Shown here: piece by piece, positions 1 to 48,036 of the stretch
Numbering within the stretch: position 1 is the first letter of the stretch
How the letters are laid out: the number at the start of each line of letters is the position of its first letter
Virus record (IMG/VR): IMGVR_UViG_3300042199_000477
Span: 1-48,036 of that record
Direction: 5' to 3' (one strand)
Source: a virus
Taxonomy: Duplodnaviria > Caudoviricetes
Length of the DNA: 48,036 nt
Notes under the pieces: generated by a model
Databases searched by the model: none
What the model was told of the DNA's origin: nothing
Seen by the model: only the letters and a program-made list of their open reading frames with translations
Made by a program: the position numbers and the translations under genes

Positions 1-353
1 CCGAGGGCGGCGTCGCCCGGTCGCTCGGCACGGGCATCGCGCAGTTGAATCGCGACATCGACATCCGGGCCGCCGAGTCGCAGTTGGCGGGCGAAGAGCA
101 GGCGGCGCGCATGCTGGCCGCTTTGCTCGGGATCGAGCAGCAGCCGACGCGCGACCTAGCCAACGCCTACCTCGGTCAAGGGGCGGCGATCGCATCGACG
201 CCCGATCCGTGGGCGGGCTTCTTCGAGAAGTCCGGCACGGCGTTGGCCGGCGCGGGCTCCAACGTCATGACGCTCCTCGAGCAGCGGCGTCGTGAGGCGG
301 AGCAAAAAGCGCAGTTCGATCAGATTTTGACGCAGATCATGGGGCCGAAGTGA
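1..353 (+). CDS. 3' part of small ejection/DNA-transfer protein (full copy 44592..45299)
   Basis: Identical to the end of 44592..45299; truncated by the window edge. Confidence 0.75.
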   Translation, partial: EGGVARSLGTGIAQLNRDIDIRAAESQLAGEEQAARMLAALLGIEQQPTRDLANAYLGQGAAIASTPDPWAGFFEKSGTALAGAGSNVMTLLEQRRREAEQKAQFDQILTQIMGPK

Positions 354-1636
354 TGCCTCCCTCCGACACGAGCGCCCCGCCGCCCGCCTTCGACGGCATC
401 CTGCAAGCGATTGCGATGGGATTCGCCGCCGGTTTCGGCGGGAAAAGCGTCGCCGATATGCAGGCGGAGCAGCGCCGCATGTCGTGGGAGGCGTGGCAGC
501 GCGAGCAAGACGCGAAACTGCGCCGTGAGGAAATGGACCGCAGCGATCGGCGGTTCCAGCAGCAACTCGACATGCAGCGGACGCAGCTCGAAATCGAGCA
601 ATCCCGGTACGAGCGGGAGGACGCGCGCCGCTTTGCCGAAGACCTGAGCCGCGGCCAAGCGCTCGGCATGTTGGCCCCGGTCGGGGAAGCGGAGTTCACC
701 GCGGCAATGGCTCGCGAGGGCCGCGCCGCAGACGAAGCGAGCCGGGCCGAAGCGCGCGCCGCGGACCAAGCGCAACGAGACAAGGAAGCGGCGGACGCGG
801 CGGCGTTCGGCGTTCAAGAAGGGCTTTTGCCGCAGGGCACCACGAGCTTTTCCCCGACGATTCTTCCGGCGCTGGTCAACAGTGCCGAACGGAAGTCGGC
901 GCAGGAGGATCGCAAGGCGGCGCGATACGACGCCAACAAGGCGCGCGAAGAGCAGATGGCCTTCGATATCTGGCGGACTTTGCGCCAAGAGGACCAGAAC
1001 ATCGAGCAGTTGGACAGCACGTTTCGGCAAGCCGCCGTGTCCGCCGCGCGAGACGACCTTATCAACGGGCGCACGACGTCGTTCGAGGGGTCGGTCGAAG
1101 CGTACATGCGACTCTTCGGCAAGGGCAAGGCGGCGTCCGCCAGCTCCTCCGACGTCGCCAAGATCATGGCGCAGATTCGCGGCGGCGACGTGGCGGCGGT
1201 GACCGCGCTGCAGAACGCGATGCCCGCTGCGGAGTCGCGGCCGGTGGCGGAGTCGAGGCCTGCGGCTGAATCGCGTCCGGTGGCTCCCGCCGCGGCCGAC
1301 ACGCGGCCTGCCGCGGGCACGATCCCGCCGGTCGGCAAGAAGCCGTCCGTGGTGTTGCGGGAGAAGGCGGATTCCAAAGTAAAAGCGCAGAAAACCGCAC
1401 AGCAAGAGGAGCGCGCCGGTTGGGTGCGAAAGTTCCTCTATAGCGAAGTTCCGCAAGAAGTTTTGGTGGCGATCGAAAACCGCCTTGGCGACAAGGCCGA
1501 CGAACAGGCGGTGATTGATGCGATTCTGAGCAATTGGGACGCCGCTTCGCGCCGTGCCAACCAGTCGCGCTCGCGTTCGTCGGCGGGACCGGCCACGATC
1601 GTTTTGGAAGCGGCCAAGGCCGCGGCTGGTAAGTGA
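350..1636 (+). CDS. Putative internal virion/ejection protein 2
   Basis: 428 aa, Ala/Gln/Glu-rich helical protein; second of three coupled genes after the tail genes, as in podovirus ejection operons. Confidence 0.6.
   Translation: MMPPSDTSAPPPAFDGILQAIAMGFAAGFGGKSVADMQAEQRRMSWEAWQREQDAKLRREEMDRSDRRFQQQLDMQRTQLEIEQSRYEREDARRFAEDLSRGQALGMLAPVGEAEFTAAMAREGRAADEASRAEARAADQAQRDKEAADAAAFGVQEGLLPQGTTSFSPTILPALVNSAERKSAQEDRKAARYDANKAREEQMAFDIWRTLRQEDQNIEQLDSTFRQAAVSAARDDLINGRTTSFEGSVEAYMRLFGKGKAASASSSDVAKIMAQIRGGDVAAVTALQNAMPAAESRPVAESRPAAESRPVAPAAADTRPAAGTIPPVGKKPSVVLREKADSKVKAQKTAQQEERAGWVRKFLYSEVPQEVLVAIENRLGDKADEQAVIDAILSNWDAASRRANQSRSRSSAGPATIVLEAAKAAAGK
1225..1311 (+). repeat. Degenerate 18-bp in-frame tandem repeat (AESRPV/AESRPA)
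   Basis: Translation AAESRPVAESRPAAESRPVAPAAADTRPA. Confidence 0.7.
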
Positions 1637-4600
1637 TGCCAGACCCCTTCAAACTTCCCGCTCTCGGCGGATTCACGACGCGCCAAGACGCGCTGGACGG
1701 ATACCGTCCGTCTGAGCTCGAAGTCCGCGCGGAGTTGGAGCAGCGAAAGAAGGACCAAGAGGACGGGCTGTTTACGACGATCCTCAAGACGCCGGAAACG
1801 CTCCTCGGGGCGCACGCGATTCGCGGATCGGTGCGCGGCATCGGAGAGCAGGGCACGTTCGAGGGGTTCGTCGAGGGCTTCTATCGCGGCCTGCCGACCA
1901 CCAAATTGACGGACTGGCTCGGCATCACCGAGGACCATTTTCGCGAGACGTATACCGCGGACATTCGCCGTGCGTTCGGAGACACCGACCAAAGCGGGAT
2001 GGGCAATTTCGTGCTCAACCTCGCCGGGGACATCCTGACCGATCCGTCGTCGTTCGTGACGGCCTTCGGAAAGACGGCCAAGGGCGTTGCGGCGGGCATG
2101 GACATCGCGGCAGGCGTGGCGCAGGGGATCAAGAACGGCGAGCGCGCGGCGCTGGTCTTCAAGTTCCCTTGGATGGAGCGCATCGCGTTCGGGCTGCCCG
2201 TGCTCGATGCGTCGTTCCGAAAGATGGGCTTCCAGTCGCTTTCGCTGAACATCGCGGAAGGGCTCGATTCGTGGGCCGGATGGATGCGCACCGGCCCCCT
2301 CAACGGCATCACGCGCGCGCTGACGTCCCAAGCGATCGGCATTTCCGATCCGGAGCAAGCCCGGGCGATTAAGCGTCTCGGCGAGCAGTTGCGAGGCACT
2401 CGCGCGGGCGTCGAGTCGGCGTTCCTCCAAGTCTTTGCGCAGACGCCTAAGGAGGCGCAAGAGTTCCTGCTGAGTTCGCCCGCGGCGCAGCGCGTCGTGC
2501 TGGAAATGCGCGAGCGAGGGCTGGCGTCGTTCGACGACATCCACCAGCTGAAAGCGATCCTCGAGCAACCGGCGATGGTTCCGATTACGCCCGATTGGGT
2601 GCAGATCGCGGATCGCACCGCCGGGGTCGGCGACATTGCGACGCCGCTCGAGAAGGCGCGCGCCGACGTCGCTTCCTCGGTGGCGATGCAAGAGGCGCGC
2701 ACGATCGAAGGCGCTCGCGAGTCGGTTCTACGCGACGTCGACGAAGTCATGGCGGCGATCGACGCTTCGCAGGCGGGCGGCGGGAAACTTCGCGAAGGGC
2801 TCGACAAGTACCTCGTGAACGCCGTCGGCTTCATGCGGAAGCTCGGCGACAAGGAAGTAGCCGAAGGCATCCTGAACGGGATGTTTGAACACTACGTTCC
2901 GCGGCACGTGACGGACGAAGCGCGCAAGCTCATCAACGCGCGGTTCGATGCGGCGATTCAAGGGGCCGGATCGGGGCTCAATCGCATCGAAGCGTTCATG
3001 CGCGGTCGCAAGTTCACGGACCTCACTACGGTGGAAGCGAACGCCGTGGTGCGCGAGCTCGGCACGCGCGCGACCGGCTACGTCCCGCTCGACGACATCG
3101 CCAAACTGGCGGAGCAAGAAGCCGGGTTCTTCACCAAGATTTTCGACGCGGATTTCGTCAAGCAGTTGCGCAAGGTCGACGACGACGCGGCCGACTTCTT
3201 CAACGTCAACCCGATTTTCGCGGACCTCTTGCGGGCGCGCGCTTCGGGGCAGGCGCTCGGCTCGGCGAACTTCCGCCGCAACGCTCTTCGCGCGATCTCG
3301 AAGGGCGACTTCGCCGCGCGAGATTTGGCGGCGCGGGCGCAAGAAATCCAGCAGTTGAGCGACAAGGGCTACGTGGCCGTCGTCGAGGGCAAGGGCGGCC
3401 GCCTCGAGCGCGTTGCGGAAGACACCTTCGTCGCGGAGCAATTCGGTCGCGACGGAAATTCGCGGTTCTTGCTCCATCGCGATCGCCTGCGCGATCACGT
3501 GGACGGACTCATCGACGCCGAAGGCGCGGACTTCGACAAAACGGTCGCCGGTCTGGAAAAGGCCCGCGACATCGGGCACGTCGCGGGCGCCCCGACGAAG
3601 CCGAAGCGCGCGGGCCTGCTACCGAAGGGCACGCGCCGCCCGATGTCGGAAGAGGAGTTGCTGAACGCCGACCTGCGCGTTTACGACAACGACGACGCCG
3701 CCACGGTGATGATGAAGCAGGCGCTCGTCGATCAACGGCTGGCGATTCAAGAGCGGAACCTGTTGCGGCAGGCTCGCGAGCTCAATGCGTCCGGCGAGAC
3801 GGCCTTTGTCGGCACGAAGGGCGGCGGGGCGCAGCGGAATTTCACGGCCGATACGGTCGTGCGCGATGCGCGGCAGCGCGCGGCGGCGCGACTCGAATCG
3901 GCCAAGACCGCCGAGGCCGAACTCGAGGCGGTGCGGCAGTCGATCGTCGGAATCGACGATGAATTAGCCGCGCTCGCGGAGGCGGACCGCAAGGCCACCG
4001 AGGCGGCCAAGGCCGCCTTCGTGGGCGGCGAAAAGGTCCGCAAGACGGCAGCCCGGGCGGAGCGGTCCGGCCAAGCCGCGGATCGCGCCTTCGGCGCCGC
4101 GGACGTCCGGCAGACCGAAGCCGCCGACCTCGCGGCCGAGCGGGCCGGTCGGAATTTTCAGTTCTACTCGCGGCAGGCCGACGAAGCCTCTGGCGCGATT
4201 CCTGAGCTCGCGGGACGGGTCGATGCGGCAGAACTCGCGGCATCGTCCGCGGCCGAACGAGCGGCCGTCCTGCGGGCGGAGCGGGCCGCCTTGGAAAAGG
4301 ACGCGGCCATTCTCGCGTCCTTCAAGGACGACTTAGCGATTGCGAAGAATCCGAAGGCCATCGAAACGCTGGTCGAGCGCGAGTTGCGCGAGCGCGCCGC
4401 AGACGTCCGGGAGCGCCTGTCGCGGGCCAAGCTCAACACGCAAAGCACGCGCGCGGCGATTCAGTCGCAGATCGACGAACTCTCCGATGAATTCCGAGAG
4501 TACGCGACGTCGGTTTACGGCGACCTGCGCGCCGCTGAAAAGCATCTTGCACACCTGAAAAAGCTCGGCACGCACGGAAGCGTCGCCGCGCGCCAAATTC

Positions 4601-10409: not shown

Positions 10410-10775
10410 TCACGCGCCGCCCGACGACTTCCGCGACGCCTGTTCCCTGCGACCGTCCGCACGCATCTTTGCGGCGCATGGGTCGCCGCAGCACTTGTTT
10501 CGCAAACGCTTGCGCGGATTTACCGTGAATGGCGATCCGCAAACGACGCACTTCTTTATGTCTGGGTAGGACTGCTTGTGCAGTCTCATGTGTGCCGCGC
10601 TCAAGAGAACGACAAGATTTTCTTCGCGGTTGTCCAATGGGTTTCCGTTGATGTGGTGGACATGCTCCGAAGCAAGTAGCTTTCGCCCGAGCTTCTGCTC
10701 CATGATCCAGCGATGAGCGCGGACTTTTTTCCCATCCCGCCATATCAACCGCGTCCGAGTGTTTGGGCTTGTCAT
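10410..10775 (-). CDS. HNH (homing-type) endonuclease with C-terminal Zn finger
   Basis: AHRWIME..LGRKL..EHVHHINGNPLDNREENL..L....H..H plus CVVC...CC..C. Confidence 0.85.
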   Translation of the reverse strand: MTSPNTRTRLIWRDGKKVRAHRWIMEQKLGRKLLASEHVHHINGNPLDNREENLVVLLSAAHMRLHKQSYPDIKKCVVCGSPFTVNPRKRLRNKCCGDPCAAKMRADGRREQASRKSSGGA

Positions 10776-10778
10776 GCA

Positions 10779-11723
10779 TCATGGTAACGCAATGCGTTTC
10801 CTGATTTCAAGCAAGCGACGGCCGGCCACCTCGGCAACGGCAGGAACTACGGCGTTTCCGAGGCACTTAAGCCTGTCCACCCGAGAGGGAACCCCATGAG
10901 CCACTCGACCCACGGAGGGTTCAGGTGTCCACCCACGGTCGCGTTGAGCCCCGACGATCGCGCCCCACCCGGCGTCGTCGATACTCCGCCGCGGCTGTCC
11001 TCTTTGGTCGGCGTCGGCCAAAGCCGTACCGCTCTCGCAAGCGTCGGATTGTCGCCAGCAAACTGCGAGTCCTGATCCGGTCTTCCCGCTTTCGGCGTCG
11101 GCCACATTCGCACGGCCTGTCCGAGCGTGTCCGATACGAGCCTCCCGGTCACCTTGTCGTAAAGCCGCTGATTCGGATGCCTCGGTGGATTCCCGCTCGC
11201 ATCCACAATTCGATCTATTCTTAGTCCGCATTCCGACGTTGTTGGCGTCGGCCATAATTCCGATGATGAAGACCCGATCCCTACGGTGATGGGCGCCGAC
11301 GGCGGACGCCGGAATGCAATCCCACTCCGCATCGTACCCGCTCTCGGAAAGCTCTCCGAGTACGTCGCCCATTCCCCGTCCAAGCAACGCTGCGACGTTT
11401 TCCAGCACGACGAAGCGCGGTCGAACCAAGCGAACGACTCGCATGAGTTCGTAGAACAGTCCGCTTCGTGCGCCTTCGATTCCGGCTCGTTTTCCGGCAT
11501 TGGAAATGTCCTGACACGGGAACCCTCCGCAGATCAGATCGACCGGCGGAACGTCGTGCATCTTCGTGATGTCGTCAAACCGTTGAGCATCCGGCCAGTG
11601 CTTCGCAAGAACGGCCCGCGCATAGGGGTCGATTTCGCATTGCCAAACGGTGCGACCGCAACCGGCTCTTTCGAGTCCGAGTTCAAGGCCGCCGATGCCG
11701 CTGAAAAGCGAGCCGATTTTCAC
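10779..11723 (-). CDS. DNA (cytosine-5)-methyltransferase, alpha polypeptide
   Basis: Motif I FSGIGG, IV GFPCQD, VI ENV, VIII HRRDRVF and X LGNAVVP are present; motif IX is absent from this frame. Confidence 0.92.
   Translation of the reverse strand: MKIGSLFSGIGGLELGLERAGCGRTVWQCEIDPYARAVLAKHWPDAQRFDDITKMHDVPPVDLICGGFPCQDISNAGKRAGIEGARSGLFYELMRVVRLVRPRFVVLENVAALLGRGMGDVLGELSESGYDAEWDCIPASAVGAHHRRDRVFIIGIMADANNVGMRTKNRSNCGCERESTEASESAALRQGDREARIGHARTGRANVADAESGKTGSGLAVCWRQSDACESGTALADADQRGQPRRSIDDAGWGAIVGAQRDRGWTPEPSVGRVAHGVPSRVDRLKCLGNAVVPAVAEVAGRRLLEIRKRIALP
10847..11500 (-). CDS. Nested alternative-frame ORF: putative C5-methyltransferase beta polypeptide (motif IX plus WPTP repeats)
   Basis: 217 aa, ATG with AGGA upstream; ends in LNPPWVEWLMGFPLGWT (motif IX-like); three WPTP units. 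Confidence 0.7.
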   Translation of the reverse strand: MPENEPESKAHEADCSTNSCESFAWFDRASSCWKTSQRCLDGEWATYSESFPRAGTMRSGIAFRRPPSAPITVGIGSSSSELWPTPTTSECGLRIDRIVDASGNPPRHPNQRLYDKVTGRLVSDTLGQAVRMWPTPKAGRPDQDSQFAGDNPTLARAVRLWPTPTKEDSRGGVSTTPGGARSSGLNATVGGHLNPPWVEWLMGFPLGWTGLSASETP

Positions 11724-12028
11724 GCTTCGCCTTTCTCGATGGCGGAGGCGCGGGAGCGGAGATCGTCGGCAAACTCATCCCAGTGACTCATAGTGCCGGG
11801 ATTGCGTTCGTAGATCTTGGCAATCTCCCTGAGCGCCTTCGCGGCGGCTTTGCGCTCGCGGGCTTGGCATCGCGCTTCGTAGGCGGCGTTGATCGCGGCG
11901 GCACGATCATTAGCATCGCGCTCCGACGTTTCTCCGACGTAAACATCGGCGTCTCGCGTAGGCGAACCGACGTACCAAACGTCGCCGCTCCACTGATAAG
12001 CCTCCGCAAACGGCTTCTCGTCGCTCAT
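11720..12028 (-). CDS. Hypothetical protein
   Basis: 102 aa, GTGA-coupled to the methyltransferase. Confidence 0.6.
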   Translation of the reverse strand: MSDEKPFAEAYQWSGDVWYVGSPTRDADVYVGETSERDANDRAAAINAAYEARCQARERKAAAKALREIAKIYERNPGTMSHWDEFADDLRSRASAIEKGEA

Positions 12029-17760: not shown

Positions 17761-17912
17761 AATTCGTCGGCGGCGAACTGGACGGCTACGACGTGCCGGT
17801 CGAACTGGTCGAAGTAACCGACCACGTGTTTTCGATCGACCGGGCGCGGTGCTGGTTGCTCGTGCGTCGCGACGACGGCGTCCTCGTATTCGAGATTTTC
17901 AATGCTCCTTGA
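17757..17912 (+). CDS. Small hypothetical protein, 51 aa ([13 protein letters not shown]...)
   Basis: GTGA coupling; FVGGxxDG start common in small phage proteins; not in the ORF track. Confidence 0.55.
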
Positions 17913-18684
17913 ACGAGTCGAGATCGGGCCGCACGTGCTCTATCGCGCGGACTGCCGCGACGTGCTGCCGCTCGCCGACGCCGACGTGTGCGTCACCGAC
18001 CCGCCCTACGGCGAAACGTCGTTGGCTTGGGATCGGCGCGTCGACGGGTGGCTCGACGCGCTTCGCACCGTGCAACTTTGGTGCTTCGGCTCGTTGTCGA
18101 TGTTCATGGAGCGGTCCGCAGACTTCTTGCGGTTCGGCACGAAGGCCCAAGAAATCGTGTGGGAAAAGCACAACGGATCGAACTTCCACGCCGATCGCTT
18201 TCGGCGCGTTCACGAATTGTTCGTGCATTTCTATCGCGGGGCGTGGTCCGACTTGTACCGCTCCGTACAGACGACGCCCGACGCCGTCCGGCGCGTCGTT
18301 CGCCTCAAACGCAAGGCGCCGCATCACACCGGCGCGATCGAGCCCGCGCCCTACTCTTCGGAAGACGGCGGGCCGCGGCTCGCCCGCTCCGTGATGCGCG
18401 TGGCTTCGGCGCACGGCTATGCCGAGCATCCCACCCAAAAGCCGGTCGCGATCATCACACCCGCCGTCGCCTACTCGTGCCCGGCGGGTGGCGTCGTGCT
18501 CGACCCTTTTATGGGCAGCGGCTCTACCGGAGTTGCGTGCGCACGGCTCGGCCGCCGCTTTATCGGAATCGAAATCGACGAAACGTACTTCCGCATCGCG
18601 TGCCGTCGCATCGCCGACGCCGTGAACGGAGGAGTACAACCTAATTTGTTCGACTCGGAGGCATTCACCCAAGGAGGGGATTGA
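17902..18684 (+). CDS. DNA N6-adenine/N4-cytosine methyltransferase, beta class
   Basis: DPPY precedes HPTQKP and [11 protein letters not shown], then GIEID. Confidence 0.92.
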
Positions 18685-44595: not shown

Positions 44596-45299
44596 GCGGC
44601 CTTATCACCGCGGCGGCCATCACGACGGCGGGGGCCGTGGGCGGCAACCTTCTCGCGGCGGACGCGGCATCGAAGCGTCAAGACGCCGGATTTGCCCGTC
44701 AGGACCAAGGCATTCGTCGGCTTGAAGGCTTGGCGGCAGGGCAGGCCGAAGACCCGCGGCTGCGGCTTCTGTCGCAGTTGGTCGAGCGTCGGCTAATCAA
44801 CCCGTCCGCGCTGGACCCGCGCACCGTGGAATTGCTCAAGGCGCGCGGTGCGGCCGACATCAACACGGCTTCGCAGTCGGCGCTAAACGCGATCCGTTCG
44901 CGCGCGGGCGCGTCCGGCAGCATCCGGTCCGGCACGACCGGCAAGTCCGAGGGCGGCGTCGCCCGGTCGCTCGGCACGGGCATCGCGCAGTTGAATCGCG
45001 ACATCGACATCCGGGCCGCCGAGTCGCAGTTGGCGGGCGAAGAGCAGGCGGCGCGCATGCTGGCCGCTTTGCTCGGGATCGAGCAGCAGCCGACGCGCGA
45101 CCTAGCCAACGCCTACCTCGGTCAAGGGGCGGCGATCGCATCGACGCCCGATCCGTGGGCGGGCTTCTTCGAGAAGTCCGGCACGGCGTTGGCCGGCGCG
45201 GGCTCCAACGTCATGACGCTCCTCGAGCAGCGGCGTCGTGAGGCGGAGCAAAAAGCGCAGTTCGATCAGATTTTGACGCAGATCATGGGGCCGAAGTGA
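44592..45299 (+). CDS. Small ejection/DNA-transfer protein
   Basis: ATG 44592; Gly/Ala-rich hydrophobic N-terminus, GSIRSG motif, helical Gln-rich body. Confidence 0.65.
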   Translation: MSGLITAAAITTAGAVGGNLLAADAASKRQDAGFARQDQGIRRLEGLAAGQAEDPRLRLLSQLVERRLINPSALDPRTVELLKARGAADINTASQSALNAIRSRAGASGSIRSGTTGKSEGGVARSLGTGIAQLNRDIDIRAAESQLAGEEQAARMLAALLGIEQQPTRDLANAYLGQGAAIASTPDPWAGFFEKSGTALAGAGSNVMTLLEQRRREAEQKAQFDQILTQIMGPK

Positions 45300-46582
45300 T
45301 GCCTCCCTCCGACACGAGCGCCCCGCCGCCCGCCTTCGACGGCATCCTGCAAGCGATTGCGATGGGATTCGCCGCCGGTTTCGGCGGGAAAAGCGTCGCC
45401 GATATGCAGGCGGAGCAGCGCCGCATGTCGTGGGAGGCGTGGCAGCGCGAGCAAGACGCGAAACTGCGCCGTGAGGAAATGGACCGCAGCGATCGGCGGT
45501 TCCAGCAGCAACTCGACATGCAGCGGACGCAGCTCGAAATCGAGCAATCCCGGTACGAGCGGGAGGACGCGCGCCGCTTTGCCGAAGACCTGAGCCGCGG
45601 CCAAGCGCTCGGCATGTTGGCCCCGGTCGGGGAAGCGGAGTTCACCGCGGCAATGGCTCGCGAGGGCCGCGCCGCAGACGAAGCGAGCCGGGCCGAAGCG
45701 CGCGCCGCGGACCAAGCGCAACGAGACAAGGAAGCGGCGGACGCGGCGGCGTTCGGCGTTCAAGAAGGGCTTTTGCCGCAGGGCACCACGAGCTTTTCCC
45801 CGACGATTCTTCCGGCGCTGGTCAACAGTGCCGAACGGAAGTCGGCGCAGGAGGATCGCAAGGCGGCGCGATACGACGCCAACAAGGCGCGCGAAGAGCA
45901 GATGGCCTTCGATATCTGGCGGACTTTGCGCCAAGAGGACCAGAACATCGAGCAGTTGGACAGCACGTTTCGGCAAGCCGCCGTGTCCGCCGCGCGAGAC
46001 GACCTTATCAACGGGCGCACGACGTCGTTCGAGGGGTCGGTCGAAGCGTACATGCGACTCTTCGGCAAGGGCAAGGCGGCGTCCGCCAGCTCCTCCGACG
46101 TCGCCAAGATCATGGCGCAGATTCGCGGCGGCGACGTGGCGGCGGTGACCGCGCTGCAGAACGCGATGCCCGCTGCGGAGTCGCGGCCGGTGGCGGAGTC
46201 GAGGCCTGCGGCTGAATCGCGTCCGGTGGCTCCCGCCGCGGCCGACACGCGGCCTGCCGCGGGCACGATCCCGCCGGTCGGCAAGAAGCCGTCCGTGGTG
46301 TTGCGGGAGAAGGCGGATTCCAAAGTAAAAGCGCAGAAAACCGCACAGCAAGAGGAGCGCGCCGGTTGGGTGCGAAAGTTCCTCTATAGCGAAGTTCCGC
46401 AAGAAGTTTTGGTGGCGATCGAAAACCGCCTTGGCGACAAGGCCGACGAACAGGCGGTGATTGATGCGATTCTGAGCAATTGGGACGCCGCTTCGCGCCG
46501 TGCCAACCAGTCGCGCTCGCGTTCGTCGGCGGGACCGGCCACGATCGTTTTGGAAGCGGCCAAGGCCGCGGCTGGTAAGTGA
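45296..46582 (+). CDS. Ejection protein 2 (repeat copy)
   Basis: Translation identical to 350..1636. Confidence 0.6.
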   Translation: MMPPSDTSAPPPAFDGILQAIAMGFAAGFGGKSVADMQAEQRRMSWEAWQREQDAKLRREEMDRSDRRFQQQLDMQRTQLEIEQSRYEREDARRFAEDLSRGQALGMLAPVGEAEFTAAMAREGRAADEASRAEARAADQAQRDKEAADAAAFGVQEGLLPQGTTSFSPTILPALVNSAERKSAQEDRKAARYDANKAREEQMAFDIWRTLRQEDQNIEQLDSTFRQAAVSAARDDLINGRTTSFEGSVEAYMRLFGKGKAASASSSDVAKIMAQIRGGDVAAVTALQNAMPAAESRPVAESRPAAESRPVAPAAADTRPAAGTIPPVGKKPSVVLREKADSKVKAQKTAQQEERAGWVRKFLYSEVPQEVLVAIENRLGDKADEQAVIDAILSNWDAASRRANQSRSRSSAGPATIVLEAAKAAAGK

Positions 46583-48036
46583 TGCCAGACCCCTTCAAAC
46601 TTCCCGCTCTCGGCGGATTCACGACGCGCCAAGACGCGCTGGACGGATACCGTCCGTCTGAGCTCGAAGTCCGCGCGGAGTTGGAGCAGCGAAAGAAGGA
46701 CCAAGAGGACGGGCTGTTTACGACGATCCTCAAGACGCCGGAAACGCTCCTCGGGGCGCACGCGATTCGCGGATCGGTGCGCGGCATCGGAGAGCAGGGC
46801 ACGTTCGAGGGGTTCGTCGAGGGCTTCTATCGCGGCCTGCCGACCACCAAATTGACGGACTGGCTCGGCATCACCGAGGACCATTTTCGCGAGACGTATA
46901 CCGCGGACATTCGCCGTGCGTTCGGAGACACCGACCAAAGCGGGATGGGCAATTTCGTGCTCAACCTCGCCGGGGACATCCTGACCGATCCGTCGTCGTT
47001 CGTGACGGCCTTCGGAAAGACGGCCAAGGGTGTTGCGGCGGGCATGGACATCGCGGCGGGCGTGGCGCAGGGGATCAAGAACGGCGAGCGCGCGGCGCTG
47101 GTCTTCAAGTTCCCTTGGATGGAGCGCATCGCGTTCGGGCTGCCCGTGCTCGATGCGTCGTTCCGCAAGATGGGCTTCCAGTCTCTCTCGCTCAACATCG
47201 CGGAAGGGCTCGATTCGTGGGCCGGATGGATGCGCACCGGCCCCCTCAACGGGATCACGCGCGCGCTGACGTCGCAAGCGATCGGCATTTCCGATCCGGA
47301 GCAGGCCCGGGCGATTAAGCGTCTCGGCGAACAGCTGCGCGGCACGCGCGCGGGCGTCGAGTCCGCGTTCCTCCAAGTCTTTGCGCAGACGCCGAAGGAG
47401 GCGCAGGAATTCCTGCTGAGTTCGCCCGCGGCGCAGCGCGTCGTGCTGGAAATGCGCGAGCGTGGGCTGGCGTCGTTCGATGACATCCACCAACTGAAAG
47501 CGATCCTCGAGCAACCGGCGATGGTTCCGGTAACGCCCGATTGGGTGCAGATCGCGGATCGCACCGCCGGGGTCGGCGACATCGCGACGCCGCTGGAGAA
47601 GGCGCGCGCCGACGTCGCTTCCTCGGTGGCGATGCAGGAGGCGCGCACGATCGAAGGCGCTCGCGAGTCGGTTCTGCGCGACGTCGACGAAGTCATGGCG
47701 GCGATCGACGCTTCGCAGGCTGGCGGCGGCAAACTTCGCGAAGGGCTCGACAAGTACCTCGTGAACGCCGTGGGCTTCATGCGAAAGCTCGGCGACAAGG
47801 AAGTGGCCGAGGGCATCCTGAACGGGATGTTTGAACACTACGTTCCGCGGCACGTGACGGACGAAGCGCGCAAGCTCATCAACGCGCGGTTCGAGGCGGC
47901 GATTCAGGGTGCCGGATCGGGGCTCAATCGCATCGAAGCGTTCATGCGCGGTCGCAAGTTCACGGACCTCACTACGGTGGAAGCGAACGCCGTGGTGCGC
48001 GAGCTCGGCACGCGCGCGACCGGCTACGTCCCGCTC
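46579..48036 (+). CDS. Large ejection protein, 5' part (variant allele, truncated by the window end)
   Basis: Same frame as 1633..6306 with mostly synonymous differences. Confidence 0.65.
   Translation, partial: MMPDPFKLPALGGFTTRQDALDGYRPSELEVRAELEQRKKDQEDGLFTTILKTPETLLGAHAIRGSVRGIGEQGTFEGFVEGFYRGLPTTKLTDWLGITEDHFRETYTADIRRAFGDTDQSGMGNFVLNLAGDILTDPSSFVTAFGKTAKGVAAGMDIAAGVAQGIKNGERAALVFKFPWMERIAFGLPVLDASFRKMGFQSLSLNIAEGLDSWAGWMRTGPLNGITRALTSQAIGISDPEQARAIKRLGEQLRGTRAGVESAFLQVFAQTPKEAQEFLLSSPAAQRVVLEMRERGLASFDDIHQLKAILEQPAMVPVTPDWVQIADRTAGVGDIATPLEKARADVASSVAMQEARTIEGARESVLRDVDEVMAAIDASQAGGGKLREGLDKYLVNAVGFMRKLGDKEVAEGILNGMFEHYVPRHVTDEARKLINARFEAAIQGAGSGLNRIEAFMRGRKFTDLTTVEANAVVRELGTRATGYVPL

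Follow-up and report, generated by a model that had tools for sequence, protein, structure and literature searches.

The two reading frames of the locus

The window, i.e., the whole stretch of 48,036 nucleotides analysed here, is a tailed phage genome in which a scan of 34 ORFs recognized a terminase, a helicase, a RecE-like exonuclease and, by a weak match, a major head protein. Its positions 1-3090 recur at 44947-48036; the contig is either a circle or a molecule with terminal repeats, the unit being ~44.9 kb. The locus of interest lies on the minus strand, and its features are as follows, in the direction of transcription.

11720..12028, minus strand: 102-aa ORF with no assigned function; its stop overlaps the alpha start (GTGA)
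10779..11723, minus strand: alpha chain, C5-cytosine methyltransferase of 314 aa, GTG start, motifs I-VIII and X
11708-11688, minus strand: alpha motif I
11525-11508, minus strand: alpha motif IV, GFPCQD, with the catalytic PC
11509..11512, minus strand: AGGA, candidate Shine-Dalgarno-like sequence, 8 nt before the beta ATG
10847..11500, minus strand: beta chain of 217 aa, ATG start, +1 frame, wholly inside alpha
11255..11500, minus strand: N-terminal arm of beta (WKTSQ ... FPRAGTMRSG), overprinted on alpha motifs V-VIII
11405-11394, minus strand: alpha motif VI
11291-11271, minus strand: alpha motif VIII
11105..11254, minus strand: WPTP unit 1 of beta, 50 aa, from a family of 28 units, with a predicted beta-hairpin insert
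11021..11104, minus strand: WPTP unit 2 of beta, 28 aa, with no close relative among 937 units
10925..11020, minus strand: WPTP unit 3 of beta, 32 aa, from a family of 7 units
10874..10924, minus strand: motif IX of beta (LNPPWVEWLMGFPLGWT), overlying the conserved alpha stretch EPSVGRVAHGVPSRVDRL
10862-10842, minus strand: alpha motif X
10410..10775, minus strand: HNH endonuclease gene of the HNH_3 type, beginning 3 nt past the alpha stop

The alpha chain matches PF00145 over residues 1-167 (E 2.7e-47) and phrog_363 over nearly its whole length. A preliminary description of this DNA had assigned C5-methyltransferase motifs I, IV, VI, VIII and X to alpha and noted that motif IX is absent there; all five were located on the minus strand, and no motif IX-like string occurs in the 314-aa frame. 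The usual C5-methyltransferase arrangement, in which the catalytic chain also holds motif IX and the variable region, was not found, motif IX being in the +1 frame. The nested 217-aa ORF proposed in the same description is indeed there, also on the minus strand and in the +1 frame relative to alpha. It carries LNPPWVEWLMGFP at residue 193, and the alpha stretch EPSVGRVAHGVPSRVDRL is conserved and leads into motif X.

The beta chain is matched by phrog_1008 (E 2e-22), and 1378 beta homologues were counted among 1787 candidates. No match to beta was obtained in Pfam, NCBIfam, PADLOC or solved structures; the best solved-structure match, a glycolipid transfer protein (E 0.047), was taken as chance. 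When folded alone, beta gave a low-confidence model (pTM 0.36), in which the arm has three strands, unit 1 contains a hairpin predicted with confidence, and each unit closes with a short helix. This low-confidence model found none of the solved folds at Z 2 or more, a BFVD search with it returned family members only, and an Atlas search with beta returned unnamed viral clusters.

Within PCQD, the codons for Q and D create the AGGA ahead of beta, and the beta ATG, 6 codons past the catalytic PC, is the only ATG ahead of the conserved arm in the window. Upstream, the beta frame is limited by a TGA 5 codons before the PC. The earlier suggestion that the catalytic codons themselves create an AGGA, a putative ribosome-binding site, is correct for the window but does not describe the family: AGGA stands at the equivalent place in 58 of 127 loci and an ATG 6 codons after the PC in 9 of 127, the two together in 6 of 127 only. 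The commonest beta ATG lies 7 codons before the PC (37/125 loci). A start codon ahead of the arm was present in all 125 loci examined, and it was ATG in 117 of them.

The stop/start overlap between the 102-aa ORF and alpha suggests translational coupling. The HNH_3 neighbour gives no sign of being a cognate restriction enzyme, and no restriction gene was recognized beside the locus, where the neighbours are the HNH_3 gene and small ORFs of no known family. In run X12, one low-depth contig connects position 10437 directly with 10849; its short side comprises 30 letters, and it is a weak hint of a variant without the HNH_3 gene. The window sequence was found in freshwater DNA runs, while no RNA runs were listed as containing it. 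Among contigs from four DNA runs that contain the window in part no cassette swap was seen, and none of these contigs spans the gene.

Conservation of the nested frame

The length of the beta ORF alone proves little, because this genome of 66% G+C contains several other long shadow ORFs, and the case for beta therefore rests on conservation. When the alpha protein was fixed and the codons were resampled (5000 draws), a stop-free +1 frame over the beta span of the window had P = 0.0096. For an open alpha frame over the units of the window, P was 0.063. The third frame of the locus has 6 stops.

Homologous loci were collected from both sides. The beta-selected set comprised the best 80 of 592 viral loci, the window's own locus included. 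Motif IX was in the +1 frame relative to the catalytic frame in all 80, and motifs IV and X were in one ORF in 77 of the 80 by pattern, the remaining three being intact on reading. The alpha-selected set comprised 79 loci (best 80 of 113, self removed). The beta profile (HMM) matched the +1 frame only in all 75 parsed loci of this set, and the 4 unparsed loci were the same on reading. The alpha-selected set is not fully independent, since the pattern YDAEWDCI overlies the beta arm and some contigs are common to both sets. Interruption of the nested frame in homologues, which had been named in advance as the observation that would speak against a second gene, was seen in 2 of the 79 alpha-selected loci, L115 and L153, which have a stop inside beta. 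Two further loci of this set have a stop ahead of the conserved arm.

For the stop counts, 6 pattern failures and 26 redundant loci were removed from 159 loci, which left 127. Both frames were open in the 6 dropped loci on reading, and one of them reaches the contig end. Expected numbers were obtained by fixing the alpha protein and resampling its codons. Over motifs IV-VIII, 1 stop was seen in the +1 frame against 251 expected, so that the stop-codon check across homologues proposed earlier came out in favour of an open nested frame. The controls behaved as they should: 141 stops were counted in the +1 frame over motifs I-III against 209 expected, and the third frame had 249 against 263 and 547 against 379. 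The alpha frame over the units had 0 stops against 494 expected, although this figure is partly fixed by the locus selection. Moreover, the third-position entropy of conserved alpha columns falls from 1.81 bits over motifs I-III to 1.18 over motifs VI-VIII. Judged from these comparisons, the nested beta frame is under selection.

It could be argued that beta is a shadow that is never translated, or else an unrelated protein, and that alpha is active alone or has decayed. The long shadow ORFs of the G+C-rich genome and the missing Pfam or NCBIfam match would agree with this, but the conservation tests contradict it through the near absence of stops and the reduced synonymous variation. The restriction of motif IX to beta, the number of beta homologues, and the occurrence of the same units within single-frame methyltransferases (see below) also stand against a shadow, and we regard this explanation as very improbable.

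The WPTP units and their single-frame relatives

The three WPTP units reported for beta were recovered at residues 83, 133 and 161, with an exact 11-nt repeat at the three unit starts (spacing 84 and 150 nt). Above them, alpha reads ADA at residues 158, 208 and 236. Alpha residues ~158-260 are unconserved and stop-free, and at the WPTP anchor the free base is the third position of beta, while alpha varies there among D, Y and H. Because the free base is beta's third position, it is alpha that is the shadow at the units, and the impression that the main frame merely follows the repeats proved right, since alpha wobbles with beta.

Cutting 294 proteins gave 937 units, 1-10 per protein, with a median length of 36 codons. 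By heuristic clustering, which sometimes merges two units, 595 of the 937 group into 46 families with at least four members, and 200 remain singletons. In the unit loops, G, R, S, T, N and K are frequent. All five closest betas (73-84% arm identity) have unit 3, placed elsewhere in the array and beside different partners; unit 1 is absent from all five. None of the 8 locus pairs with scaffolds at least 90% identical has the same array (108 loci). On a quick scaffold tree of these 108 loci, seven of eight unit families tested are scattered; family 0 needs 14 changes for 16 carriers, and family 9, with 2 changes among 10 carriers, is clustered. One-unit loci occur naturally, among them mycobacteriophage Che9d gp80, whose single unit recurs in P0006 and P0013. 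From this distribution, the units evidently reassort faster than the scaffold. Exchange is nevertheless not free, because some families keep one position: family 0 is last in 40 of 49 cases, family 16 in 10 of 10, and family 9 is first in 17 of 18. The earlier picture of exchangeable cassettes thus stands as regards modularity, reassortment among relatives and location in the variable-region slot, but not for the several families that are fixed in position.

The relatives of the locus show where the units belong. In RedFox gp42/43 and Samy gp49/50, alpha is closed after motif VIII and the +1 frame carries the arm, the units, motif IX and motif X. Single chains of the order I-IV-VI-VIII-units-IX-X were found in 10 of 76 longer matches, and 82 of the 113 new matches of a follow-up search are single chains of the order I-VIII-units-IX-X. 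Among the 192 units of these 82 single-frame proteins, 129 match units of nested loci. Since the units stand between motifs VIII and IX in the single-frame relatives, they are the variable region by position, i.e., the part that makes specific DNA contacts in solved enzymes (PMC3404938). Tandem modules between VIII and IX, as in multispecific methyltransferases, are thus present, and there is a good probability that the units form the DNA-recognition region. In the model of one single-frame chain, the core and the region of motifs IX and X are confident (pLDDT 90-98 over the latter region), the units are of low confidence (pLDDT 34-66), and the best structural match is M.HhaI.

An ADA-like remnant after motif VIII is retained in 62 of the 82 single-frame proteins and the beta arm in 4 of the 82, which suggests that the single-frame forms derive from the two-frame form. 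The loss of the arm in single-frame proteins in turn suggests that the arm may serve only to join two chains. The same remnant bears on another explanation, namely that one chain is made by programmed frameshifting, which would leave alpha after motif VIII, switch to the +1 frame for the units and motif IX, and shift back for motif X. The single-frame relatives do follow such a path, and the alpha-type remnant in 62 of the 82 also speaks for it. However, two shifts would be needed, the +1 frame is stop-free and conserved over motifs V-VIII, where such a product would not use it, and a start codon, mostly ATG, precedes the arm in every locus examined. Furthermore, M.EcoHK31I works as two separately encoded chains (PMC2836561). 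A frameshifted product therefore has little to recommend it, and separate translation of two chains is strongly preferred; we consider it very likely, from the sequences compared, that the locus encodes a two-chain enzyme.

Whether the units act singly is a separate matter. Multispecific C5 methyltransferases with tandem target-recognising domains were reportedly described by Trautner et al. in 1996; they come from Bacillus phages and are single chains. Several short exchangeable tandem modules in the variable region are common to those enzymes and the present family. The modules of the multispecific enzymes, dissected by domain swaps, follow the TL consensus P[STCA]PT[ILV][TASV] (PMC2413257). 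By comparison, the full consensus fits only 12 of the 937 units, although its core is matched by PTPT in 365 of the 937. The specificities of the multispecific-enzyme modules were shown by swapping, whereas the present units are candidate modules that mostly do not fit the consensus. Across the family, the end of a unit reads L-x-x-A-V-(R/K)-(M/L); among 592 non-final units, L is present in 48% and the TL dipeptide in 22%. The unit ends TLGQAV, TLARAV and GLNATV were also considered as a strict TL motif, which was rejected on account of these family-wide ends.

These data can also be read as a two-chain enzyme with one specificity, in which the units fold together into one surface, or base reading falls to the unit adjacent to motif IX alone, with the remaining units adding affinity or serving as spares. 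Several observations are in keeping with this: the position bias of several unit families, the poor fit to the TL consensus, the shortness of the units (median 36 codons) and the existence of one-unit loci. It is less easily reconciled with the several positions and the 13-29 different partner families recorded for most large families, with the different arrays on near-identical scaffolds, and with a copy number from 1 to 10. We therefore consider a single specificity unlikely, about one chance in several. One specificity per unit is a plausible reading that still falls somewhat short of an even chance.

Further rearrangements were observed in the family. In a third split (L032:1150-2200), motifs I-III are fused in frame to beta, and motifs IV-VIII and X are in the other frame; the same split occurs in P0021, P0025, P0028, P0034, P0037, P0057, P0058, P0092 and P0099. 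Motifs I and IX without IV were found in 14 of 119 near matches. At least two different junction sequences recur in the third split, which suggests separate origins. Single chains P0157, P0169 and P0182 are permuted, with alpha (I-VIII, X) followed by the units and motif IX, and P0157 retains the beta arm. In the single-frame proteins P0166, P0172, P0176 and their relatives, further units lie between IX and X. Large inserts are present in the beta frame of other members, LAGLIDADG-like in L026 and P0132 (PF00961) and HNH/zinc-ribbon-like after motif IX in L016 and L059, with alpha still open in each case. Mobile endonuclease genes are, on this evidence, tolerated within the doubly coded gene.

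Known two-chain enzymes and the possible function of the family

[quoted passage not shown] Activity on its target, YGGCCR, requires both chains, and N-terminal truncation of beta weakens the association (PMC2836561, PMC3404938). For comparison we used an M.EcoHK31I-like sequence, an E. coli locus (WP_001328257.1) identified with a primer given in PMC2836561. Of 5426 complete E. coli genomes, 81 contain the primer site; in the single genome opened (L161:2514-3443), RefSeq gives alpha, beside a NotI-family endonuclease, but not the beta chain known from experiment.

The layout shared with M.EcoHK31I is a beta fully inside alpha in the +1 frame, with motifs I-VIII and X in alpha and IX in beta. 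The arm is homologous to the M.EcoHK31I-like arm (WSNSGMAFRGEYW against FPRAGTMRSGIAF, in the same register). The arm motif, WSNSG in E. coli, lies 21 codons ahead of motif VIII in both loci, and the distance from motif IX to X is 18 codons in the M.EcoHK31I-like locus and 16 here. The phage beta profile matches the E. coli +1 frame weakly (E 5e-6 for three sequences). Given the same frame and register, the overlap is likely homologous, and the two-chain layout is thus already known. The proposal that this is a two-frame enzyme of the EcoHK31I type, beta holding its motif IX, is accordingly supported by the frame, the register and the conserved open frames.

On the other hand, M.EcoHK31I is part of a restriction-modification pair, whereas the phage enzyme is an orphan without a cognate endonuclease beside it. 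The M.EcoHK31I-like beta (176 aa) has no PTP unit, unlike the phage beta. The recognition domain of M.EcoHK31I is assigned to alpha, and the M.EcoHK31I-like alpha has YTLDSRG, with a TL dipeptide, before motif X; in the phage family, the corresponding region of alpha is a shadow, and it is beta that carries the units. What differs from the known layout is, as far as the sequences tell, that the variable region is in the hidden chain, in the form of reassorting units. M.AquI is another natural two-chain C5 methyltransferase, in which the small chain holds part of the variable region and motif IX (PMC3404938). The small chain of M.AquI also holds motif X, in contrast to the window, where X is in alpha and beta is fully nested; RedFox and Samy have an M.AquI-like split, with IX and X in the small chain.

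Paenibacillus phage Shelly gp55/gp56 (phrog_363/phrog_1008) belongs to the same family and has the nested layout, known by annotation, with gp56 entered as 'g55 internal gene'. PMC6070908 describes two adjacent cytosine methyltransferases, in passages that do not discuss an overlap. The expectation that annotation pipelines would miss beta is correct for many records, among them S-H1, Che9d and ShroomBoi, where beta is unannotated, but not for Shelly, and beta does match phrog_1008. A literature search with poor coverage of subscription journals found no publication on the phage family or its units. In cellular assemblies, the best 80 of 520 loci span 18 named phyla. The frames are nested in 68 of these loci and overlap partly in 2, while 2 more are truncated where the contig ends and 8 were left unclassified; many of the 80 come from bins and may be prophage or misbinned DNA.

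We hypothesize that the two conserved overlapping frames of the locus likely encode both chains of one orphan C5 methyltransferase, in which beta would supply the recognition region and motif IX, and each unit would possibly add a target. A single message would give rise to both chains, with translation of beta beginning at an internal start. Beta would dock on alpha via the arm and the packing of motifs IX and X, as in M.EcoHK31I; by analogy with the M.EcoHK31I truncations, the arm is likely the alpha-binding part. Alpha residues 158-260 would be a passive linker that stays stop-free so that motif X gets made, and units would be gained, lost and swapped in whole codons at the repeated WPTP ends. 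Orphan methyltransferases of mobile elements are described as antirestriction tools (PMC12707154), and from its context the present enzyme may methylate phage DNA against host restriction. In a broader and more tentative form, which we put at somewhat below even odds, phages would share a library of at least 46 families of stand-alone base-reading cassettes of a non-TL type, swapped in a doubly coded gene. Each phage would build its own multispecific anti-restriction enzyme from them, and the parts would recur in nested, partly overlapping, re-split and single-chain forms.

M.EcoHK31I is cited as a rare exception, and the present locus is one member of a large phage family that has this overlap; in the family, the region for recognition seems to have shifted into the hidden frame. 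Should specificity be set by the units, annotation of alpha only would mean that targets are predicted from the wrong frame, and the library of units would provide natural parts for m5C specificities. With its nested, partly overlapping, re-split and single-frame members, the family is a rare series for the origin and undoing of gene overlap, and one-unit members in cultured phages such as Che9d make it testable.

Two further observations concern the same genome. A second orphan methyltransferase, of the N6/N4 type (PF01555, phrog_67), is encoded at 17902-18684 of the window on the plus strand, and two long overlapping frames with no Pfam match lie in this region. In addition, the palindromes GGCC, CTAG, CGCG and CCGG are under-represented in window positions 1-44946 (z -8.2 to -5.8); such a deficit would be expected from restriction avoidance and is not linked to the methyltransferase described here.
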